Below the pieces are notes generated by a model, which saw nothing but the letters and a program-made list of their open reading frames with translations, had not been told where the DNA came from and made no database searches. The translations under genes were made by a program, and so were the position numbers. From the NCBI GenBank assembly GCA_002726235.1, contig PBSN01000007.1, positions 62,001 through 126,000 on the forward strand: a DNA stretch of 64,000 nucleotides. The letters are read 5' to 3'. Of the stretch, positions 5,396 through 24,962 are shown one piece after another (position 1 is the first letter of the stretch; each line of letters begins with the position of its first letter). This DNA comes from Nitrospiraceae bacterium (GTDB taxonomy: Bacteria > Nitrospirota > Nitrospiria > Nitrospirales > UBA2166).

Positions 5396-6855
5396 AGGTC
5401 ACGATTATTGGGGGAGGCATTGCTGGCCTGGCAACTGCCTACTCCTTGCTGAAACACGCTGATTCAGCAAATATTCCTGTCTCCTGTACGCTCGTCGAGT
5501 CTGCGCAACACTTCGGCGGCAAGATCCTGACCGAATTGATCGATGATTTTGTTATCGAGGGTGGCCCTGATTCGTTTCTCTCATATAAGCCGTGGGGTGT
5601 TGGGTTGTGTCGAGAACTTGGGCTTGGTGATCGCCTCATGGGCACGAATACGAAACATCATCGAACCTATGTTCTCTATAACGGGAGTCTCAGGGAGTTT
5701 CCCGAGGGGATGGTGACGCTGTCACCCTCTCAATCCCTGCCATTGCTGATGAGTCCGCTTCTCTCGTGGGCGGGAAAATTTCGATTGGTTATGGAACCTT
5801 TTATTGCCAAAGCAGCAACTGGTGGAACCGATGAATCGTTAGCGAGTTTTTTTCAACGACGGTTTGGGGTCGAGGTTTTCGAACGGCTCATTGAGCCGTT
5901 GATGACTGGGATTTATGCAGGTGATGCGGAGCAGTTGAGTCTCAAGGCGACGTTTCCGCGGTTTCTTGATTTTGAACAACAATACGGAAGTATTATCAAA
6001 GGAATGCTGGCAAGTCGTCGACAGAGAATGAAAACAAAGCTTGACACTAACGCGCGACTGACGACATTCGTCACCCTTCGCGGGGGCCTTGCTGAGATGG
6101 TTCGTGCACTGGTCGCGTCTCTGGAGCGCATTGGGAAAGAAAAAATGTTGTTGCGAACCGGTGTCAAGGTCACTGGTCTCACCAAGTTAGTTTCAGGGAA
6201 AAATCCCAAGTATGAAGTAAAATTAAGGAGTGGGGAGAGTCTCATCAGTGATGCGGTCGTGCTGGCGACGCCCGCATTTACAGCAGCAGATTTGTTAATG
6301 GCTATCGATAAAGGGATTACTGACCAGTTGCGTTACATTCCGTACACGAGTACGGCAACGGTCTCATTAGCGTATCCGGTAGCAAGTCTTTCACATGCTC
6401 ACTCTTTGAACGGGTTTGGTTTTGTTATTCCCCGGGTTGAGAATCGTCTGTTGGTCGCTTCGACATGGACCTCAACAAAATGGGCGCATCGGTCCCCGAG
6501 TGATCACGTGCTTATTCGGTGTTATCTTGGAGGTGTCGGGCGGGAAGACGTTGTGTTTCGAGATGATCAAGACATCGTTCATCTCGTACGGAAAGAACTG
6601 CGAGATATTCTTGATATCACTGCTGATCCAGCATTATCGCGAATATATCGATGGAAGAATGCCATTCCGCAGTATCTGGTTGGACATCTTGATCGGCTTG
6701 TTGAGATTGAAAAACGTTTAATTCAGTATCCTGGGTTGTGTGTGACAGGATCAGCCTACCGGGGTGTGGGTTTGCCGGATTGTATTCACGAAGGTGACCT
6801 GACTGCGAAAAAAATAGTCGATTACTTCCTGGACTCAGGGTTGGTAAAACAATAG
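5392..6855 (+). CDS. hemY: Copro/protoporphyrinogen oxidase (HemY/CgoX family)
   Basis: IIGGGIAGL FAD motif, EGGPDSF, GIYAGD, PQYLVGH and GVGLPDCI. Confidence 0.93.
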   Translation: MKVTIIGGGIAGLATAYSLLKHADSANIPVSCTLVESAQHFGGKILTELIDDFVIEGGPDSFLSYKPWGVGLCRELGLGDRLMGTNTKHHRTYVLYNGSLREFPEGMVTLSPSQSLPLLMSPLLSWAGKFRLVMEPFIAKAATGGTDESLASFFQRRFGVEVFERLIEPLMTGIYAGDAEQLSLKATFPRFLDFEQQYGSIIKGMLASRRQRMKTKLDTNARLTTFVTLRGGLAEMVRALVASLERIGKEKMLLRTGVKVTGLTKLVSGKNPKYEVKLRSGESLISDAVVLATPAFTAADLLMAIDKGITDQLRYIPYTSTATVSLAYPVASLSHAHSLNGFGFVIPRVENRLLVASTWTSTKWAHRSPSDHVLIRCYLGGVGREDVVFRDDQDIVHLVRKELRDILDITADPALSRIYRWKNAIPQYLVGHLDRLVEIEKRLIQYPGLCVTGSAYRGVGLPDCIHEGDLTAKKIVDYFLDSGLVKQ

Positions 6856-19594: not shown

Positions 19595-19623
19595 TTGACA
19601 GGAAGGGGCATCCTGCGTAAACT
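19595..19623 (+). promoter_or_regulatory. Sigma70 promoter of the Rrf2-sir operon
   Basis: TTGACA-17nt-TAAACT, followed by the near-palindrome CTATC-GG-GATAG (possible operator). Confidence 0.6.
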
Positions 19624-19653: not shown

Positions 19654-20112
19654 ATGAAAGTATCAATCAAAGGGGAGTATGGCGTTATGGCCGTTCTGGA
19701 GTTGGCGCTCAATGGAAACCATGGACCGCTTCAGGTCAAGGTCATCGCGAAGAAACAGAATATTCCCCACCGTTTTCTGGAGCAGGTGATGAGTGCATTG
19801 AAACGCAATGGTTTGGTTCGTAGCATTCGAGGGGCACAGGGGGGGTATCTGCTCGCCAAATCGTCGGATGAAATCCTCCTTGGAGATATCATCGAAGCGA
19901 TTGAGGGTCCTGTCACTCCCATGCCGTGTGTGGGGAATGGAGCCGCGGGGACGTGTTGGCAAGAAACTGATCCGAAGTTGTGCGTGCTTCATGGTGTGTG
20001 GAGCGACGTGAAAGATTCAGTACTGAACGTGTTGAATGCGACGACTGTTCAGGATCTGTGCAATCGTATCCACGCGTTGAATGGTCAGCGTATTCTCATG
20101 TACCATATTTGA
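19654..20112 (+). CDS. Rrf2 family regulator (IscR/CymR-like)
   Basis: KGEYG, FLEQV and SIRGAQGGYLL; three Cys plus His; LMYHI terminus. Confidence 0.92.
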   Translation: MKVSIKGEYGVMAVLELALNGNHGPLQVKVIAKKQNIPHRFLEQVMSALKRNGLVRSIRGAQGGYLLAKSSDEILLGDIIEAIEGPVTPMPCVGNGAAGTCWQETDPKLCVLHGVWSDVKDSVLNVLNATTVQDLCNRIHALNGQRILMYHI

Positions 20113-20148
20113 TTTGCGGGTTTGCCCTTGGTTATTGGAGGTTCTGGT

Positions 20149-22593
20149 ATGGATGTACAGCAACCCACGTTGAAGGTTCCTGTTCCGGACGCGATTTTAG
20201 CTGAGATTGCCGGTTTTGAAGCCGAAGCCGAGAAAGTGAAACGGGGTGAACTGTCTGATGATGTGTTCCGGCCCTTTCGTCTGCAACATGGCATTTATGG
20301 GCAACGACAGGCTGGCTATCAGATGATTCGAGTGAAGATTCCGTTTGGTGGCCTCACCTCGACCCAAATGCGTTGCTTGGCGGCGCTCGTTGAGGAGTAC
20401 AGTTCTGGCATTGGTCATGTAACCACTAGGCAAGACATCCAATTTCATTTTGTTCCGCTCGACATGGTGGGAACGGTGATGCTTCGGCTTGCTGAGGTTG
20501 ATCTCACTACCAGAGAAGCATGCGGCAATACGGTGCGTAATGTGACCGCCTGTCCGTTGGCAGGAGTGTGCCAGGAAGAAGCATTCGATGTCACTCCCTA
20601 TGCGCTCACGGTGTCACGTCATCTTATGCGTAATGCGCTGAACCAGAGTCTCCCAAGAAAATTTAAAATTGCGTTCTCAGGGTGTGCAACAATGGATTGC
20701 GCTAAGACGATGATTCACGATATTGGCCTCTCAGCTATCCAAAAAGGTGATGGAACTCGCGGATTTCGCATGGTGGTTGGTGGAGGTCTCGGGTCGGCAC
20801 CTCGTTTAGCGAAACTTTTTCGAGAGTTTCTTTCGGTTGAAGACCTGATTCCCATGTGTGAAGCTGTCGTTAAAGTTTTCGATAATCACGGTAATCGGAA
20901 AAATCGCACGAAAGCTCGGATGAAGTTTGTAGTGACAAAGTTGGGCATTGATGAGTTTTTCCGTCAGATCGAAGCCGAATATGACGCGATCAAACAGGAG
21001 AGAAACGGATCGAGAGGGTATGATTTTCTGTCATATGCCGATGAGCCCTTCGTGGCCGATGTTCCGTTTTCGGTGAATGGAGGTCCAGGCTCCGGCGCTT
21101 CTCACGCGAATGGAGACGCCTCGGATGCGTTCGAGCGTTGGAAAAAGACAAATGTTATCCCACAGCGACAGCCTGGGTATAGTGCGATCACGTTGAAGCT
21201 TCCAACTGGTGACATGACTCCAACTCAGATACGGTTTGTGGCGGACCTGATCGATACCGAAGCAAATGGTAATATTCGAACCACTATTGGACAGAATGTG
21301 TTGATTCGTTGGATTTCGACAGCACGATTGCCTGAGATATATCCTAAACTTATTGAAGCTGACCTTGCTGATTCAGGTGCTCATCTCGTTGAGGATATTG
21401 TGGCCTGTCCAGGAACCGATACCTGTGGTCTTGGCATTACCTCTTCGAAGGCCTTGGCCCGGGCTTTGAAGGAAGTATTTCCTGCAGGAAACACGGGGGA
21501 CGATTTGACGGGAATGTCGATCAAAATCAGTGGATGTCACAACTCCTGTGCCCAGCATCACATTGCGACCATCGGGCTCCATGGCGTGACCAAGCGCTAT
21601 GGGGATCACATCGCGCCATTCTATGAAATGCATCTCGGTGGTTCATCTGGTGGTGACGGAGCGCGTATTGGACAAATGACCATCAAGCTTCCGTCTAGAA
21701 ACGTTTCGAGAGCGATTACACATCTGGTGGGATTGTTTCGACAGGAACGTCAGAACGAGGAATCGTTCCCGCAGTATCTCGATCGTGCGGGCAAATCCAA
21801 ACTTAAACAGGCACTGATCCCGTATTCGATCATTGGCAACTTTGACGAGACACCTGAATACTTTTATGACTGGGAAGCGAAGTCTGAGTTCAGTATCGTT
21901 GATCTTGGTCCTGGGGAATGTGCGGGTGGCGCGTTAGAGATGATTACCGATGGGATTTTGGAAGCCGACCAAGAGTTGTATCAAGCAGAGACACTGGCCC
22001 AAAGTCAACAATATGCCATGACGGTTAATAAAGCCTATCGGGCTGTGTTGGCAGCAGCAAAAGCGTTGCTGGTGACTGAAGGGATCGAACCTGCGACCGA
22101 TCTGCAGACGTTTGGAGATTGTGAGGCGCGGTTGATTAAAACTGGCGTTCTTCCTGCAGAATTTTCGGAGCATCTTGCGATCATCAGGGCACTCAATGAT
22201 AGTGATAAGAAACCGACGGTCGCATTTGCCGAAGAAAAACTTCGAGTGGCAAAATTGTTTGTTGAGGCATGCCGTTCAGCCTTGGAAGGGATTGGTGAGG
22301 ATTTGAAGTTAACCAAGGGTGAAGACATGGGTGATATTGCCTCTGCTCCACCAGCACTGGATGTGGGTGACGATATCGCGCTACTGGATTTGCGTGGGGT
22401 GAAATGCCCGATCAACTATGTGAAAACGAAGCTTCGTTTAGAAATGATGGATTCGGGTGAACGCCTGGCTGTCTTTCTTGATGACGGAGAGCCAATTAGA
22501 AATGTGCCAGCAAGTCTAAAAAATGACGGTCATACTGTCCTATCGCAAGAACCTATTGACGAATATTTCAAACTGGTGGTGGAGAATGCTTAA
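20149..22593 (+). CDS. sir: Siroheme sulfite reductase (Sir/NirA family) with HEPN-like and TusA-like C-terminal domains
   Basis: GIYGQRQ, TTRQD, LPRKFKIAFSGC, CPGTDTC and SGCHNSC; C-terminal LDLRGVKCPIN TusA motif; GGAGG RBS. Confidence 0.88.
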   Translation: MDVQQPTLKVPVPDAILAEIAGFEAEAEKVKRGELSDDVFRPFRLQHGIYGQRQAGYQMIRVKIPFGGLTSTQMRCLAALVEEYSSGIGHVTTRQDIQFHFVPLDMVGTVMLRLAEVDLTTREACGNTVRNVTACPLAGVCQEEAFDVTPYALTVSRHLMRNALNQSLPRKFKIAFSGCATMDCAKTMIHDIGLSAIQKGDGTRGFRMVVGGGLGSAPRLAKLFREFLSVEDLIPMCEAVVKVFDNHGNRKNRTKARMKFVVTKLGIDEFFRQIEAEYDAIKQERNGSRGYDFLSYADEPFVADVPFSVNGGPGSGASHANGDASDAFERWKKTNVIPQRQPGYSAITLKLPTGDMTPTQIRFVADLIDTEANGNIRTTIGQNVLIRWISTARLPEIYPKLIEADLADSGAHLVEDIVACPGTDTCGLGITSSKALARALKEVFPAGNTGDDLTGMSIKISGCHNSCAQHHIATIGLHGVTKRYGDHIAPFYEMHLGGSSGGDGARIGQMTIKLPSRNVSRAITHLVGLFRQERQNEESFPQYLDRAGKSKLKQALIPYSIIGNFDETPEYFYDWEAKSEFSIVDLGPGECAGGALEMITDGILEADQELYQAETLAQSQQYAMTVNKAYRAVLAAAKALLVTEGIEPATDLQTFGDCEARLIKTGVLPAEFSEHLAIIRALNDSDKKPTVAFAEEKLRVAKLFVEACRSALEGIGEDLKLTKGEDMGDIASAPPALDVGDDIALLDLRGVKCPINYVKTKLRLEMMDSGERLAVFLDDGEPIRNVPASLKNDGHTVLSQEPIDEYFKLVVENA

Positions 22594-23320
22594 AGAAATG
22601 GATGCACAAACAGTGAACACAAAAGAAGCGGAATACGATGCCCTCAATACCAAATCAGCGGAAGATGTTTTGCAGTGGGCCTCTGAGACGTTTAGCGATC
22701 GAGGTGCGCTTATGTCGAGTTTCGGGCTCGAGGATGTTGTCCTCATCGATATGATGGCCAAGATCAATCCCAAGGCACGTATCATTACCTTGGACACCGG
22801 GCGACTGAATCAAGAAACCTATGATGTGATGGATAAGATACGAGACAAGTACGGCGTCTCCATTGAGGTGATGTTTCCCGATGCGGAGAAGGTGCAAGCA
22901 ATGGTACGAACCAAAGGGATGAACTTGTTCTACCATTCTCTTGAGAACCGCAAGGAGTGTTGTCGGATACGGAAGGTTGATATTCTCAACCGTTCGCTTG
23001 CCGATTTGGATGCGTGGATTACCGGGTTGCGCCGTGCCCAGGTCGTGACGCGAACCGAGACCAAAAAAGTCGAGATTGATCATGATCGCGGAGGAATGGT
23101 CAAAATAAACCCCATTGCTGATTGGGCGGTGAATCAAGTCTGGGACTATATTAAAGCCAACCATGTTCCGTTCAATGTTTTGCATGAGCGAGGGTATCCA
23201 TCAATCGGATGTGCTCCCTGTACTCGTGCGATCTCGACTGGTGAGGATTTGCGGGCCGGGAGATGGTGGTGGGAGCTTCCGGAACATAAGGAATGTGGTC
23301 TTCACGTGCAATCGCCCTAA
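22586..23320 (+). CDS. cysH: APS/PAPS reductase, Fe-S (APS-type) CysH
   Basis: SFGLED, LDTGRL, CCRIRK, GYPSIGCAPCT, RAGRWWW and ECGLH. Start 22586 or 22598. Confidence 0.93.
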   Translation: MLKEMDAQTVNTKEAEYDALNTKSAEDVLQWASETFSDRGALMSSFGLEDVVLIDMMAKINPKARIITLDTGRLNQETYDVMDKIRDKYGVSIEVMFPDAEKVQAMVRTKGMNLFYHSLENRKECCRIRKVDILNRSLADLDAWITGLRRAQVVTRTETKKVEIDHDRGGMVKINPIADWAVNQVWDYIKANHVPFNVLHERGYPSIGCAPCTRAISTGEDLRAGRWWWELPEHKECGLHVQSP

Positions 23321-23388
23321 CGAACTTTTCCGTATTGTATTTTAAAACAAAAGATAGTGTGCTTAGTGTCATTACATAAAAACGAGGT

Positions 23389-23895
23389 ATGGACGTGGAA
23401 AATATGACGGCAGAAAATATGAAAATAGACAAATGGGAATCTCAGAATCATGGTGGAAGCCCAACGACCAATGAAAGCAAGAAATATGCAATTTTTGTTG
23501 GGCGCTATCAACCGTATCATCAGGGACATACCTCATTGATCATGCAAAAAATTAAGCAGGGAATTCCGGTATTAATCATGGTACGAGACATTGCTCCTGA
23601 TGCAAAAAATCCTTTTACAACAGAGCAAACGGTTGAGATGATTGAAAAATTTCATTCAGATCACGGCCATGACGTGAAGGTCATGATCATCCCTGATATT
23701 GAAAGCGTGAACTATGGGAGAGGCGTTGGATATGAAATCAATGAATTTACTCCGCCTGAAGACATTGGGTTTATCTCAGCAACAAAGATCAGACAATCCA
23801 TTAAAGATTCCAATGATGATTGGAGACTATTAGTTGATGAATCGATTCAGGCGGATGTAGAAAGGCACTTACTGGAAAGTGACGTAGAACTATAG
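23389..23895 (+). CDS. Small HIGH-superfamily (cytidyltransferase-like) nucleotidyltransferase; candidate minimal ATP sulfurylase
   Basis: FVGRYQPYHQGH, KNPFT, PDIESVNYGRGVGY and ISATKIR. AT-rich relative to its neighbours. Confidence 0.8.
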   Translation: MDVENMTAENMKIDKWESQNHGGSPTTNESKKYAIFVGRYQPYHQGHTSLIMQKIKQGIPVLIMVRDIAPDAKNPFTTEQTVEMIEKFHSDHGHDVKVMIIPDIESVNYGRGVGYEINEFTPPEDIGFISATKIRQSIKDSNDDWRLLVDESIQADVERHLLESDVEL

Positions 23896-23906
23896 AAATA
23901 AAAAAA

Positions 23907-24962
23907 ATGTACGCTGTGCCTCTCGATGAGATCATCGCGAAGGTGAGCCAAGGCCCGCGAGCTTCGAAAGATCTTACGTGGGGTGAGGCGAAAGCTGTTA
24001 TGAAAGGGGTTGTTGAAGGCCGTGTGACCCCATTTCAAGTTGGCGCATTAGCTGTTGGTCTGCGGATCAAAGTCGAATCAGTAACCGAGTTAGCGGCATT
24101 TGCCAGTGCTGCCCGCGATTACCTCTCGGCAACTCCGTTTCCTGACGATATCGGGCTTCTTGATGTTCCCACCTATGCACGGGAACGGACGATCCGTTCG
24201 ATGCTTGTTCCTGCGGCCATAATTGCCGTTGCGTGTGATGTCCCAGTGCTGATGCATGGGTGTGAGTCGCGTGGGTCATCTTGGAACACCGGTAGCACCT
24301 TACGGGCATTAGGCGTTCAAGCCGATGGGCACATGGCTGTGGCGTCTGACATGGTAAGGAAAACAGGGTTTGGGTATCTTGATATCGCGCTGTTTCATCC
24401 ACCGATGAGTCGTTATCTTGATTTTGCGGAAAAGCTTGGGTCCACATCATTTTTCCATCCCGTTGCTTGTCTGCTGAATCCTGGACGTGCAAAGCGGCAT
24501 CTCATTGGTATGTCTTCCGGACAGTATTTTGACAAGTTGGGGGAGACTCTTCGCATGCTTGGCTGTGACCATGGTTTGGTTGTCCAAGGGCAAGACGGTG
24601 AACCTGAACTTTCGATGATTCGGTTGCTGCGTACGTTCGAGGTGAATGCATCAATGAGTAGACCTTACGCAATGCGTCCTGCAGATTTTGCACTTTTATC
24701 GGGGACGGCTCGTGACTTTGCAATTGAAAGCGTTCAGGCAGAAGCGGCAGACATTGAACGGTTGTTGCAGAATGAGGTCACTGGAATCCGCACTGATGGG
24801 GCAGTGTTGAATGCTGCGACCATGCTGTATTTAGGTGGAAAGGCCGCCACCATTCAAGAAGGGATCCCCGTGGCTCGTGAAGCGCTTCGATCTGGTGCGG
24901 CGCAAGAGGCGTTTGTCAAGATTCGAGACGTCGAACTGTCAGTCGATAATAACGCAAGGTAG
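23907..24962 (+). CDS. TrpD-like / YbiB-like glycosyltransferase family 3 protein
   Basis: DLTWGEAK, QVGAL..LRIKVES..ELAAF, LLNP and LNAA. Lacks the GTGGD PRPP loop. Confidence 0.75.
   Translation: MYAVPLDEIIAKVSQGPRASKDLTWGEAKAVMKGVVEGRVTPFQVGALAVGLRIKVESVTELAAFASAARDYLSATPFPDDIGLLDVPTYARERTIRSMLVPAAIIAVACDVPVLMHGCESRGSSWNTGSTLRALGVQADGHMAVASDMVRKTGFGYLDIALFHPPMSRYLDFAEKLGSTSFFHPVACLLNPGRAKRHLIGMSSGQYFDKLGETLRMLGCDHGLVVQGQDGEPELSMIRLLRTFEVNASMSRPYAMRPADFALLSGTARDFAIESVQAEAADIERLLQNEVTGIRTDGAVLNAATMLYLGGKAATIQEGIPVAREALRSGAAQEAFVKIRDVELSVDNNAR

Follow-up and report, generated by a model that had tools for sequence, protein, structure and literature searches.

The window described here is a stretch of 64,000 nt from contig PBSN01000007.1 (positions 62,001-126,000, forward strand; assembly GCA_002726235.1) of a Nitrospiraceae bacterium, one of the marine Nitrospirales (UBA2166). 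It carries a putative sulfate assimilation operon, and directly after cysH in this operon lies a small open reading frame (ORF) that encodes a nucleotidyltransferase of 168 amino acids (aa). We consider it likely, from sequence comparisons, that this protein is a minimal ATP sulfurylase that replaces both an operonic CysDN and a decaying Sat domain, and that it feeds adenosine 5'-phosphosulfate (APS) to the APS reductase CysH and the APS kinase CysC. We also lean towards a broader view, namely that the family to which the ORF belongs makes up a third class of ATP sulfurylase, a minimal one, that it is the sole sulfate activator in several abundant marine lineages (uncultured Flavobacteriales, Dadabacteria) and in many large marine phages, and that it made cysDN and Sat dispensable in the genus of this bacterium. 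These predictions build on what the analysis shows directly, namely the gene with its synteny and fusions, its fold, the phyletic patterns and the decay of motifs.

Sulfur assimilation, like all sulfation that depends on 3'-phosphoadenosine 5'-phosphosulfate (PAPS), begins with the activation of sulfate. To our knowledge, textbooks and annotation pipelines recognize only two types of enzyme for this step, Sat and CysDN. A literature search found no description of such a minimal ATP sulfurylase, although subscription journals and supplements may hold one.

The operon slot of the small gene

The initial annotation placed the element at 23330..23905, a range that contains the ORF (Table 1); the remainder consists of AT-rich flanks. 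Its description of an AT-rich nucleotidyltransferase gene directly after cysH holds. The GC content of the ORF is 0.396, as compared to 0.490 for cysH, 0.524 for the TrpD-like gene that follows and 0.49 for the whole window, and the sliding-window minimum at the ORF is 0.387. The same dip, of 4-12 points, recurs in all four syntenic relatives. The ORF may start at M1, M6 or M11, given that relatives mostly have 158 aa and start near M11. The three motifs reported earlier, GRYQPYHQGH (residues 38-47), YGRG (residues 109-112, in the context YGRGVGY) and ISATKIR (residues 129-135), are present in the translation. An alignment of 50 family sequences (alignment A1) has 19 invariant or nearly invariant residues, and the ORF carries all of them; in ORF numbering they are G38, R39, P42, H44, G46, H47, R66, P75, P102, D103, G110, R111, V113, G114, Y115, S130, T132, I134 and R135. 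The family signature is GR.QP.H.GH, VRD, NP, PD....GR.VGY and S.T.IR within a PF01467-type domain of about 130-170 aa, and the ORF fits it.

As the initial annotation stated, the operon has sir and an APS-type cysH, and neither sat nor cysDN is present within it. The expectation that cysDN would be missing from the genome as well was borne out, since no CysD and no CysN was found in the assembly, the completeness of which is 90.65%. A comparison within the order covered 61 genomes, five from the genus (this genome and four others) and 56 from three other families. The small gene is present in all five genus genomes, with 81-88% identity in the four others, and in none of the 56; CysN is in none of the five and in 53 of the 56. 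CysH was found in 59 of the 61 genomes, and outside the genus, 52 of the 54 genomes having cysH contain a CysN match on the same contig, 1.5-3.9 kb away. Sat, which is discussed below, is present in five of five genus genomes and in three of the 56 others.

The arrangement of the operon in the relatives is informative. In one locus from a sister family (L113), the annotated gene order is Sir-CysH-CysD-CysN (with a partial CysC)-TrpD-like, and its CysD scores 360 bits against a cut-off of 195. Hence, precisely the place that the ORF occupies in the window is taken there by a sulfurylase. Matches obtained with tblastn point to the L113-type gene order in nine further loci; the order Sir-CysH-TrpD-like was seen in nine loci from two families, with CysN, the subunit looked for there, downstream by its coordinates. 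The patterns of CysN and the small gene in the relatives imply that cysDN was in the ancestral operon and was lost in this genus. Thus, where a sister family has cysDN, the genus now carries the small gene. The initial annotation had proposed an in-place, non-orthologous displacement and had expected sat at this position in the relatives. The relatives do have an ATP sulfurylase in the same operon, and in the sister family it is in the same slot, but its type is CysDN, and so the displaced enzyme is CysDN rather than Sat.

Some features of the operonic genes in the relatives should be mentioned here. The CysN proteins of L110, L112 and L113 have a partial APS kinase domain at the C-terminus (profile positions 2-108 of 152), which, judged from its sequence, may be inactive. 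The genus of the window instead has a full CysC, inside a Sat-CysC fusion. A single frame of about 800 aa in L110 and L112, of which the N-terminal 240 residues match no family, was rejected: its start is set too far upstream, and this masks a cysD gene of its own (compare L113).

Constraint on the small gene is as strong as on CysH. The mean number of nonsynonymous substitutions per site (dN) within the genus is 0.086 for the ORF and 0.070 for CysH, the latter having 85-91% identity. Only dN was used because synonymous substitutions (dS) are saturated in three to five of the 10 pairs for the ORF and the three regions of Sat-CysC and in two of six pairs for CysH, which makes dN/dS unreliable. 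One marine metatranscriptome library contains an identical 163-nt piece of the ORF and an identical 265-nt piece of cysH; two RNA pieces are too little for claiming transcription or co-transcription, and the uncovered parts are uninformative.

The family in other genomes and phages

Homologs of the ORF are abundant. Of 8000 candidates from a word-indexed search, 7993 reached E <= 1e-3, and many of these are 158 aa long and 78-80% identical to the ORF; an exhaustive search over representatives returned 1222 at the same threshold. The neighbors of the homologs were examined in 80 genome loci. Four of these are the syntenic Nitrospirales, where the homolog is with cysH, and in 25 others, from Flavobacteriales/Bacteroidota, Saccharibacteria and Acidobacteria, an APS kinase (CysC) is directly upstream or fused. 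Among the 55 representatives of at least 214 aa in the best 150, 44 contain an APS kinase domain, 33 with the kinase first and 11 with the kinase last. In 80 viral loci, CysC is within 3 kb in 60 and adjoins the homolog on the same strand in 37, and none of the 80 contains Sat. The initial annotation had mentioned that marine bacteria and phages have small proteins of this kind next to APS kinase or joined to it, and these counts confirm the statement; the neighborhoods show a family that is tightly linked to the APS-using enzymes CysC and CysH.

Two Flavobacteriales clusters are good examples. One (L015) has CysC, the ORF homolog, a CysQ-like phosphatase, a flippase and two sulfotransferases, and the other (L006) has the same gene set minus the sulfotransferases. 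Together they would form a PAPS cycle that lacks only a sulfurylase. Other arrangements also occur. Three proteins (P0161, P0140 and P0194) are fused to partners other than APS kinase, namely a DUF2061 predicted membrane protein, DUF6717 and a fragment of a major facilitator superfamily transporter. A Bacteroidetes single-cell genome (L026) has two tandem PF01467 genes after cysC, at 5596-5994 (132 aa) and 5998-6450 (150 aa), which differ from each other and are followed by metK and ahcY.

The distribution of the classical enzymes displays a consistent pattern. All of 32 family-carrying genomes, nine of which are chromosome-level assemblies, have an APS kinase, three have Sat and none has CysD above the cut-off (there is one weak fragment); consequently, 29 of the 32 have CysC and neither Sat nor CysD. 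CysH is present in the five chromosome-level Dadabacteria genomes tested. In a sample of 151 Flavobacteriales genomes, 72 have CysC, five carrying the family and 67 not. The five carriers all lack CysN, whereas 64 of the 67 others have it, two of the 64 being weak matches of about 210 bits. Sat did not exceed the cut-off in any of five Flavobacteriales genomes checked, that is, two family carriers outside the 32-genome set and the three CysN exceptions.

Several observations weigh against the prediction that these proteins are sulfurylases. The majority of the genome loci (51 of 80, mostly from Dadabacteria/Thermodesulfobacteriota) have no sulfur gene adjoining the homolog. The counts given above are not independent and describe a pattern, because the genomes are interrelated and many are metagenome-assembled. 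Control genomes that have neither Sat nor CysD also show orphan APS kinase matches. The family is not strictly exclusive with Sat: in an Acidobacteria genome (G031), an intact Sat-CysC coexists with a fusion of CysC to a member of this family, and in the genus itself the Sat of one species (G034) still has both catalytic motifs intact. In Xylella phage Bacata (L202:1058-2821), a distant fused homolog (about 35% identical) is beside a NADAR-domain gene, which hints at nicotinamide adenine dinucleotide (NAD) or ADP-ribose chemistry in that branch, and distant branches of the family may do something else. For all family members, sulfurylase activity is a prediction. The Bacata protein, from a cultured Salvovirus phage, has 246 aa and consists of a weak APS kinase-like P-loop domain and the distant family member; it also adjoins a gene with a sub-threshold sulfotransferase match.

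Gene context demonstrates a link to APS-using enzymes and not the reaction itself, and as described below, the second-substrate pocket appears remodelled relative to that of NMN adenylyltransferases. Both points would suit a protein that belongs to sulfur-nucleotide metabolism and does not make APS, such as an enzyme that acts on another anion (selenate, thiosulfate or phosphite), one that interconverts APS and either ADP or ATP, or an APS-binding partner or regulator of CysC and CysH. We consider this explanation unlikely, as it would leave the 29 genomes without an APS source despite their CysC (and, in the five tested, CysH). The near invariance of the HxGH and SxTxxR residues argues for catalysis rather than regulation.

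The Sat-CysC fusion and the known nucleotidyltransferases

The initial annotation also held that the genome lacks sat, and this was not upheld. A single Sat-CysC fusion is encoded between carA and rmlD on contig C18; it has 579 aa and scores 794 bits on NF004040 (cut-off 669). It contains the only CysC of the genome, which therefore does not adjoin the ORF. A canonical sat elsewhere, together with the absence of APS-forming activity, had been named in advance as the outcome that would count against the ORF being a sulfurylase; at face value the first half of this is what was found, in the form of a Sat-CysC with altered catalytic motifs.

The alterations are at positions of known importance. 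PMC6607087 lists QXRN, HXXH, VGRDHAG and PFR as the conserved active-site motifs of Sat and reports that alanine mutants at any residue of VGRDHAG have reduced or no activity. In PMC11697783, docked sulfate is contacted by two arginines, R421 and R522, and a double histidine mutant is inactive. The Sat domain of this bacterium reads FQTRHPLHRVH and VGWDYASPG where that of Aquifex (2gks) reads FQTRNPMHRVH and VGRDHASPG; its HxxH (HRVH) is intact. R421 and R522 are presumably the arginines of QTRN and GRD, going by PAPSS1 numbering.

Each species of the genus has its own version of these motifs. The fusion in the present genome has QTRH, GWDY and ISATQVR. G036 has QTRH, with YRVH for HRVH, GQDY and ISATQVH, and G033 has QTQS, VEPNYAA and ISDSQVQ. 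G035 has QTRS and ISSTQVR with an intact GRDH. Only G034 keeps both QXRN/HXXH and GRD intact, with LSGAQVR as the third motif. Since the replacements differ between species (the arginine of GRD is replaced by W, Q or P), they arose more than once. A census of the 120 best database homologs of Sat-CysC gives the same picture: QTRNPxHRxH and GRDHA are both kept in one of the nine closest sequences (76-100% identity), which form the genus clade, versus 108 of the 111 others, which come from other phyla and are 71-75% identical. Moreover, conservation of the fusion within the genus is lowest in the Sat catalytic domain (67-80% identity, mean dN 0.179), whereas the CysC domain has 84-89% identity, a mean dN of 0.084 and intact P-loop and DGD motifs. 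The simplest reading of these sequences is that the sulfurylase function of the fusion is no longer under selection and that the kinase function still is.

It might be argued that the altered Sat domain retains some activity. If the fusion still made all of the APS, the small gene would encode a second sulfurylase that is redundant or conditional, or would be a passenger in the operon, and no functional displacement would have occurred. The score on NF004040 and the intact HxxH would agree with this, as would a frame that is open in five of five species with a dN/dS of about 0.12 (a ratio that is unreliable, dS being saturated in some pairs), the G034 motifs and the two systems side by side in G031. 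We nevertheless regard it as very unlikely. The GRD arginine is replaced in three of the five species, at least one Sat motif is lost in eight of nine clade sequences versus three of 111 elsewhere, and changes in VGRDHAG weaken or abolish activity in the mutants mentioned above. The small gene, in turn, is constrained like CysH and is kept in all five species.

Both branches that consume APS look active in this bacterium, because CysH and Sir are conserved in the genus and because the genome has CysQ (293 bits, cut-off 229) and at least five sulfotransferase-family ORFs in one cluster (G000:C8:402987-415506). The latter cluster implies that this marine Nitrospirales has sulfated surface or secreted products.

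The sequence and fold of the ORF also have to be weighed, and they do not favor kinship with Sat. A Pfam scan found PF01467 only, without PF01747 or the PUA-like PF14306, and the NCBIfam list for the ORF contains no sulfurylase model. Its best NCBIfam models are NadM-type nicotinamide mononucleotide (NMN) adenylyltransferases (NMNATs), namely PRK01153 with 48.3 bits (cut-off 127) and TIGR01527 with 43.9 bits (cut-off 181.2). The closest entries by sequence in a phmmer search of the PDB are archaeal NMNATs (1ej2, E 9e-8), and no Sat was found there at E <= 1. A confident AF2 (AlphaFold) model built on a 50-sequence alignment (predicted local distance difference test score, pLDDT, 91.4) gives one compact alpha/beta domain. 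Among the matches listed by Foldseek against the PDB, there are NMNATs and phosphopantetheine adenylyltransferases (PPATs) alone, with template modelling (TM) scores of about 0.6. In an exhaustive VIA structure search, the closest fold is archaeal NMNAT 1f9a (1f9a_A; Z 13.9, root mean square deviation (rmsd) 2.5 A over 133 residues), followed by PPAT (Z 12.6) and NadM (Z 12.2). Sat, which is absent from the Foldseek matches listed, came up only in this search: Thermus Sat 1v47_B has Z 9.9 and rmsd 3.4 A over 130 residues at 22% identity, Aquifex Sat/CysC 2gks_B has Z 8.1 and yeast Sat 1j70_A has Z 6.8.

Homology to Sat by profile-profile comparison was tried and rejected, as hhalign of the family (A1) against a Sat alignment (A2) gave a probability of 2.4% (E 0.019). 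It does line up GRYQPYHQGH with QTR-NPLHRVH, but at this probability the parallels cannot be called homology, and the Sat motifs QXRN, VGRDHAG and PFR as such are not in the ORF. The initial annotation had treated the motif parallels as specific to Sat; in fact they are superfamily-wide, and GRxQPxHxGH and SxTxxR are closer to archaeal NMNAT. By sequence, then, the ORF is a small nucleotidyltransferase of the HxGH (HIGH) superfamily that is nearest to archaeal NMNAT and is not a Sat. On the modelled structure, its likeness to Sat is at the superfamily level, with the catalytic domain of Sat as a more distant structural cousin.

Being nearest to NMNAT does not make the ORF an NMNAT. In the HMMER alignment to 1ej2, about 26 NMNAT residues (102 to 129) are skipped, and GRG (residues 110-112) of the ORF is set against ALW of NMNAT. 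The tryptophan of ALW stacks on nicotinamide. An intact ATP site with a remodelled second-substrate pocket would fit the conservation of R39, R66, R111, HxGH and SxTxIR. In addition, the genome has NadD (169.8 bits, cut-off 150), CoaD (186 bits, cut-off 103) and RfaE-II, all above their cut-offs, and so the ORF is not needed for the synthesis of NAD, coenzyme A or heptose. The notion that the ORF is an adenylyltransferase for NMN or nicotinic acid mononucleotide, or another NAD-related enzyme of phage origin that came to lie beside cysH by an accident of insertion, has behind it the archaeal NMNAT/NadM matches, one source that labels a close homolog NMN adenylyltransferase and the NADAR neighbor in phage Bacata, but it is highly improbable given the scores far under the NMNAT cut-offs, the missing segment and GRG loop, the host NadD, the lack of NAD genes near the ORF and in the 14 bacterial neighborhoods annotated and the recurrent fusion or adjacency of the family to CysC.

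Comparisons with five known systems help to place the candidate sulfurylase. Sat (PF01747, TIGR00339; 1v47, 1j70 and 2gks), a homo-oligomeric enzyme, has the same alpha/beta HIGH-type superfamily fold, an arginine a few residues ahead of an HxxH-type motif and, like this family, members fused to or beside APS kinase; that both catalyze the same reaction is only proposed. Sat has about 350-400 aa, the ORF about 150, without the PUA-like domain and the catalytic domain of about 200 aa, and NMNAT and PPAT are nearer than Sat to the ORF in fold. The NadM/archaeal NMNATs (1f9a, 1ej2) share with the ORF a similar size and the motifs GRxQPxHxGH, (D/N)PFT and SxTxxR. They differ in the features described above and in that the ORF family is linked to CysC/CysH and not to NAD genes. 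The heterodimeric CysDN is related to the ORF by operon, by slot in one sister family (between cysH and the TrpD-like gene) and by a complementary distribution, both in this order and in the Flavobacteriales sample. Its fold is unrelated, however (a PP-loop ATP pyrophosphatase plus a GTPase), and its reaction is coupled to GTP hydrolysis, whereas the ORF has no GTPase partner.

The bifunctional PAPS synthases (animal PAPSS1, 1x6v; bacterial Sat-CysC) resemble the relatives of the ORF that are fused to APS kinase in both orders, with a total of about 300 aa. In these fusions, the putative sulfurylase half is a domain of about 130-150 aa and not Sat; the ORF in the window stands alone, beside an APS reductase. 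Finally, PPAT (CoaD), with about 160 aa, is likewise a minimal HxGH adenylyltransferase, and it acts ahead of a P-loop kinase, dephospho-CoA kinase (CoaE), which adds a phosphate at the ribose 3'-OH. This is a two-step logic like that of APS to PAPS, but with another substrate.

The proposed pathway and the operon

As an ATP sulfurylase of a third, minimal kind, the ORF product would convert ATP and sulfate to APS and pyrophosphate (PPi), and sulfate would be bound by the family-specific arginines R39, R66 and R111, the last in the GRG loop. In one branch, APS would pass to the adjacent CysH and then via Sir to cysteine synthesis. In the other, the intact CysC domain of Sat-CysC would convert APS to PAPS for the sulfotransferases, and CysQ would remove the 3'-phosphoadenosine 5'-phosphate (PAP). 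The equilibrium of ATP sulfurylase is unfavorable and is pulled by APS use and by pyrophosphatase; presumably the APS-consuming partners and a pyrophosphatase would do the same here. The Sat domain of the fusion would be on its way to becoming an appendage without catalytic function, attached to an APS kinase that is still active.

As to its origin, the gene would have been acquired once, by the ancestor of the genus, and inserted between cysH and the TrpD-like gene; the operon would have lost its ancestral cysDN, and in the Sat domain the catalytic residues would have drifted since. That the ORF is an acquired gene in the sulfate operon had been suggested by the initial annotation and is retained here. 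In a quick tree, the window sequence and four Nitrospirota sequences form one clade (Shimodaira-Hasegawa-like approximate likelihood ratio test, SH-aLRT, 96), nested in Bacteroidota sequences with supports of 82-86, none of them starred. The Flavobacteriales loci have a GC content of 0.28-0.33, the nearest Atlas clusters are mostly viral and viral homologs have up to 77% identity. These sequences make a single acquisition from a low-GC marine Flavobacteriales/phage pool likely, the donor being suggested and not shown.

Table 1. Features of the putative sulfate assimilation operon, in window positions
Feature	Position	Strand	Support
CymR/IscR-like regulator of the Rrf2 family	19654..20112	+	PF02082, 130 bits
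Sir, assimilatory sulfite/nitrite reductase-type hemoprotein	20122..22593	+	PF01077, PF03460; C-terminal HEPN-like PF05168, 24.5 bits, and TusA PF01206, 64 bits
CysH, thioredoxin-dependent APS reductase type	22523..23320	+	TIGR02055 APS_reductase, 273 bits (cut-off 235.3); NF002537, 283 bits
AT-rich spacer of 68 nt, cysH to nucleotidyltransferase ORF	23321..23388		Sequence; no terminator-like site
Nucleotidyltransferase ORF (HxGH/SxTxxR), 168 aa, candidate minimal ATP sulfurylase	23389..23895	+	PF01467, 28.6 bits
TrpD-like/YbiB-like glycosyltransferase-family-3 gene	23907..24962	+	PF00591, PF02885; TIGR01245, 160.9 bits (below cut-off 199)

The putative operon begins with a regulator that scores 119.7 bits on the CymR model NF047409 of NCBIfam, under the cut-off of 195. 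The top promoter-like site in a promoter scan is at 19595-19623, and the site counts are no higher than in shuffled sequences. The terminator scan, the counts of which are also no higher than in shuffles, has no terminator-like site separating cysH, the ORF and the TrpD-like gene; the latter begins 11 nt past the end of the ORF. The Sir protein is an 823-aa fusion in which a sulfite reductase is followed, toward the C-terminus, by a HEPN-like and a TusA sulfur-carrier domain. Its relatives in the order have 52-65% identity across the parts covered by their loci, the C-terminal part included, and so the Sir-HEPN-TusA fusion looks conserved across the order. In all sampled families of the order, the sir-cysH(-cysDN) operon includes the TrpD-like gene. 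In the window, this gene is followed on the same strand by genes for a DUF420 protein, a radical-SAM protein and PyrE.

The window adds three things to what the phage cases offer: through cysH and sir, the gene is linked here to the reductive branch; cysDN, ancestrally part of the same operon, is gone from it; and the active site of the remaining Sat has decayed independently in different species. Of these, the cysDN loss and the clade-specific Sat decay are new evidence that is particular to this window. If the prediction is correct, the ORF would represent the smallest known ATP sulfurylase, and it would give enzymologists a handle on how a minimal HxGH fold drives a very unfavorable reaction without a GTPase. 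The genus would be a natural experiment caught in mid-course, in which both classical enzymes have been made dispensable. Genomes that are currently taken to lack sulfate assimilation or activation, including those of marine Flavobacteriales, Dadabacteria and many phages with cysC and sulfotransferases, would have to be re-read, and metabolic models of sulfur cycling in the ocean would change.

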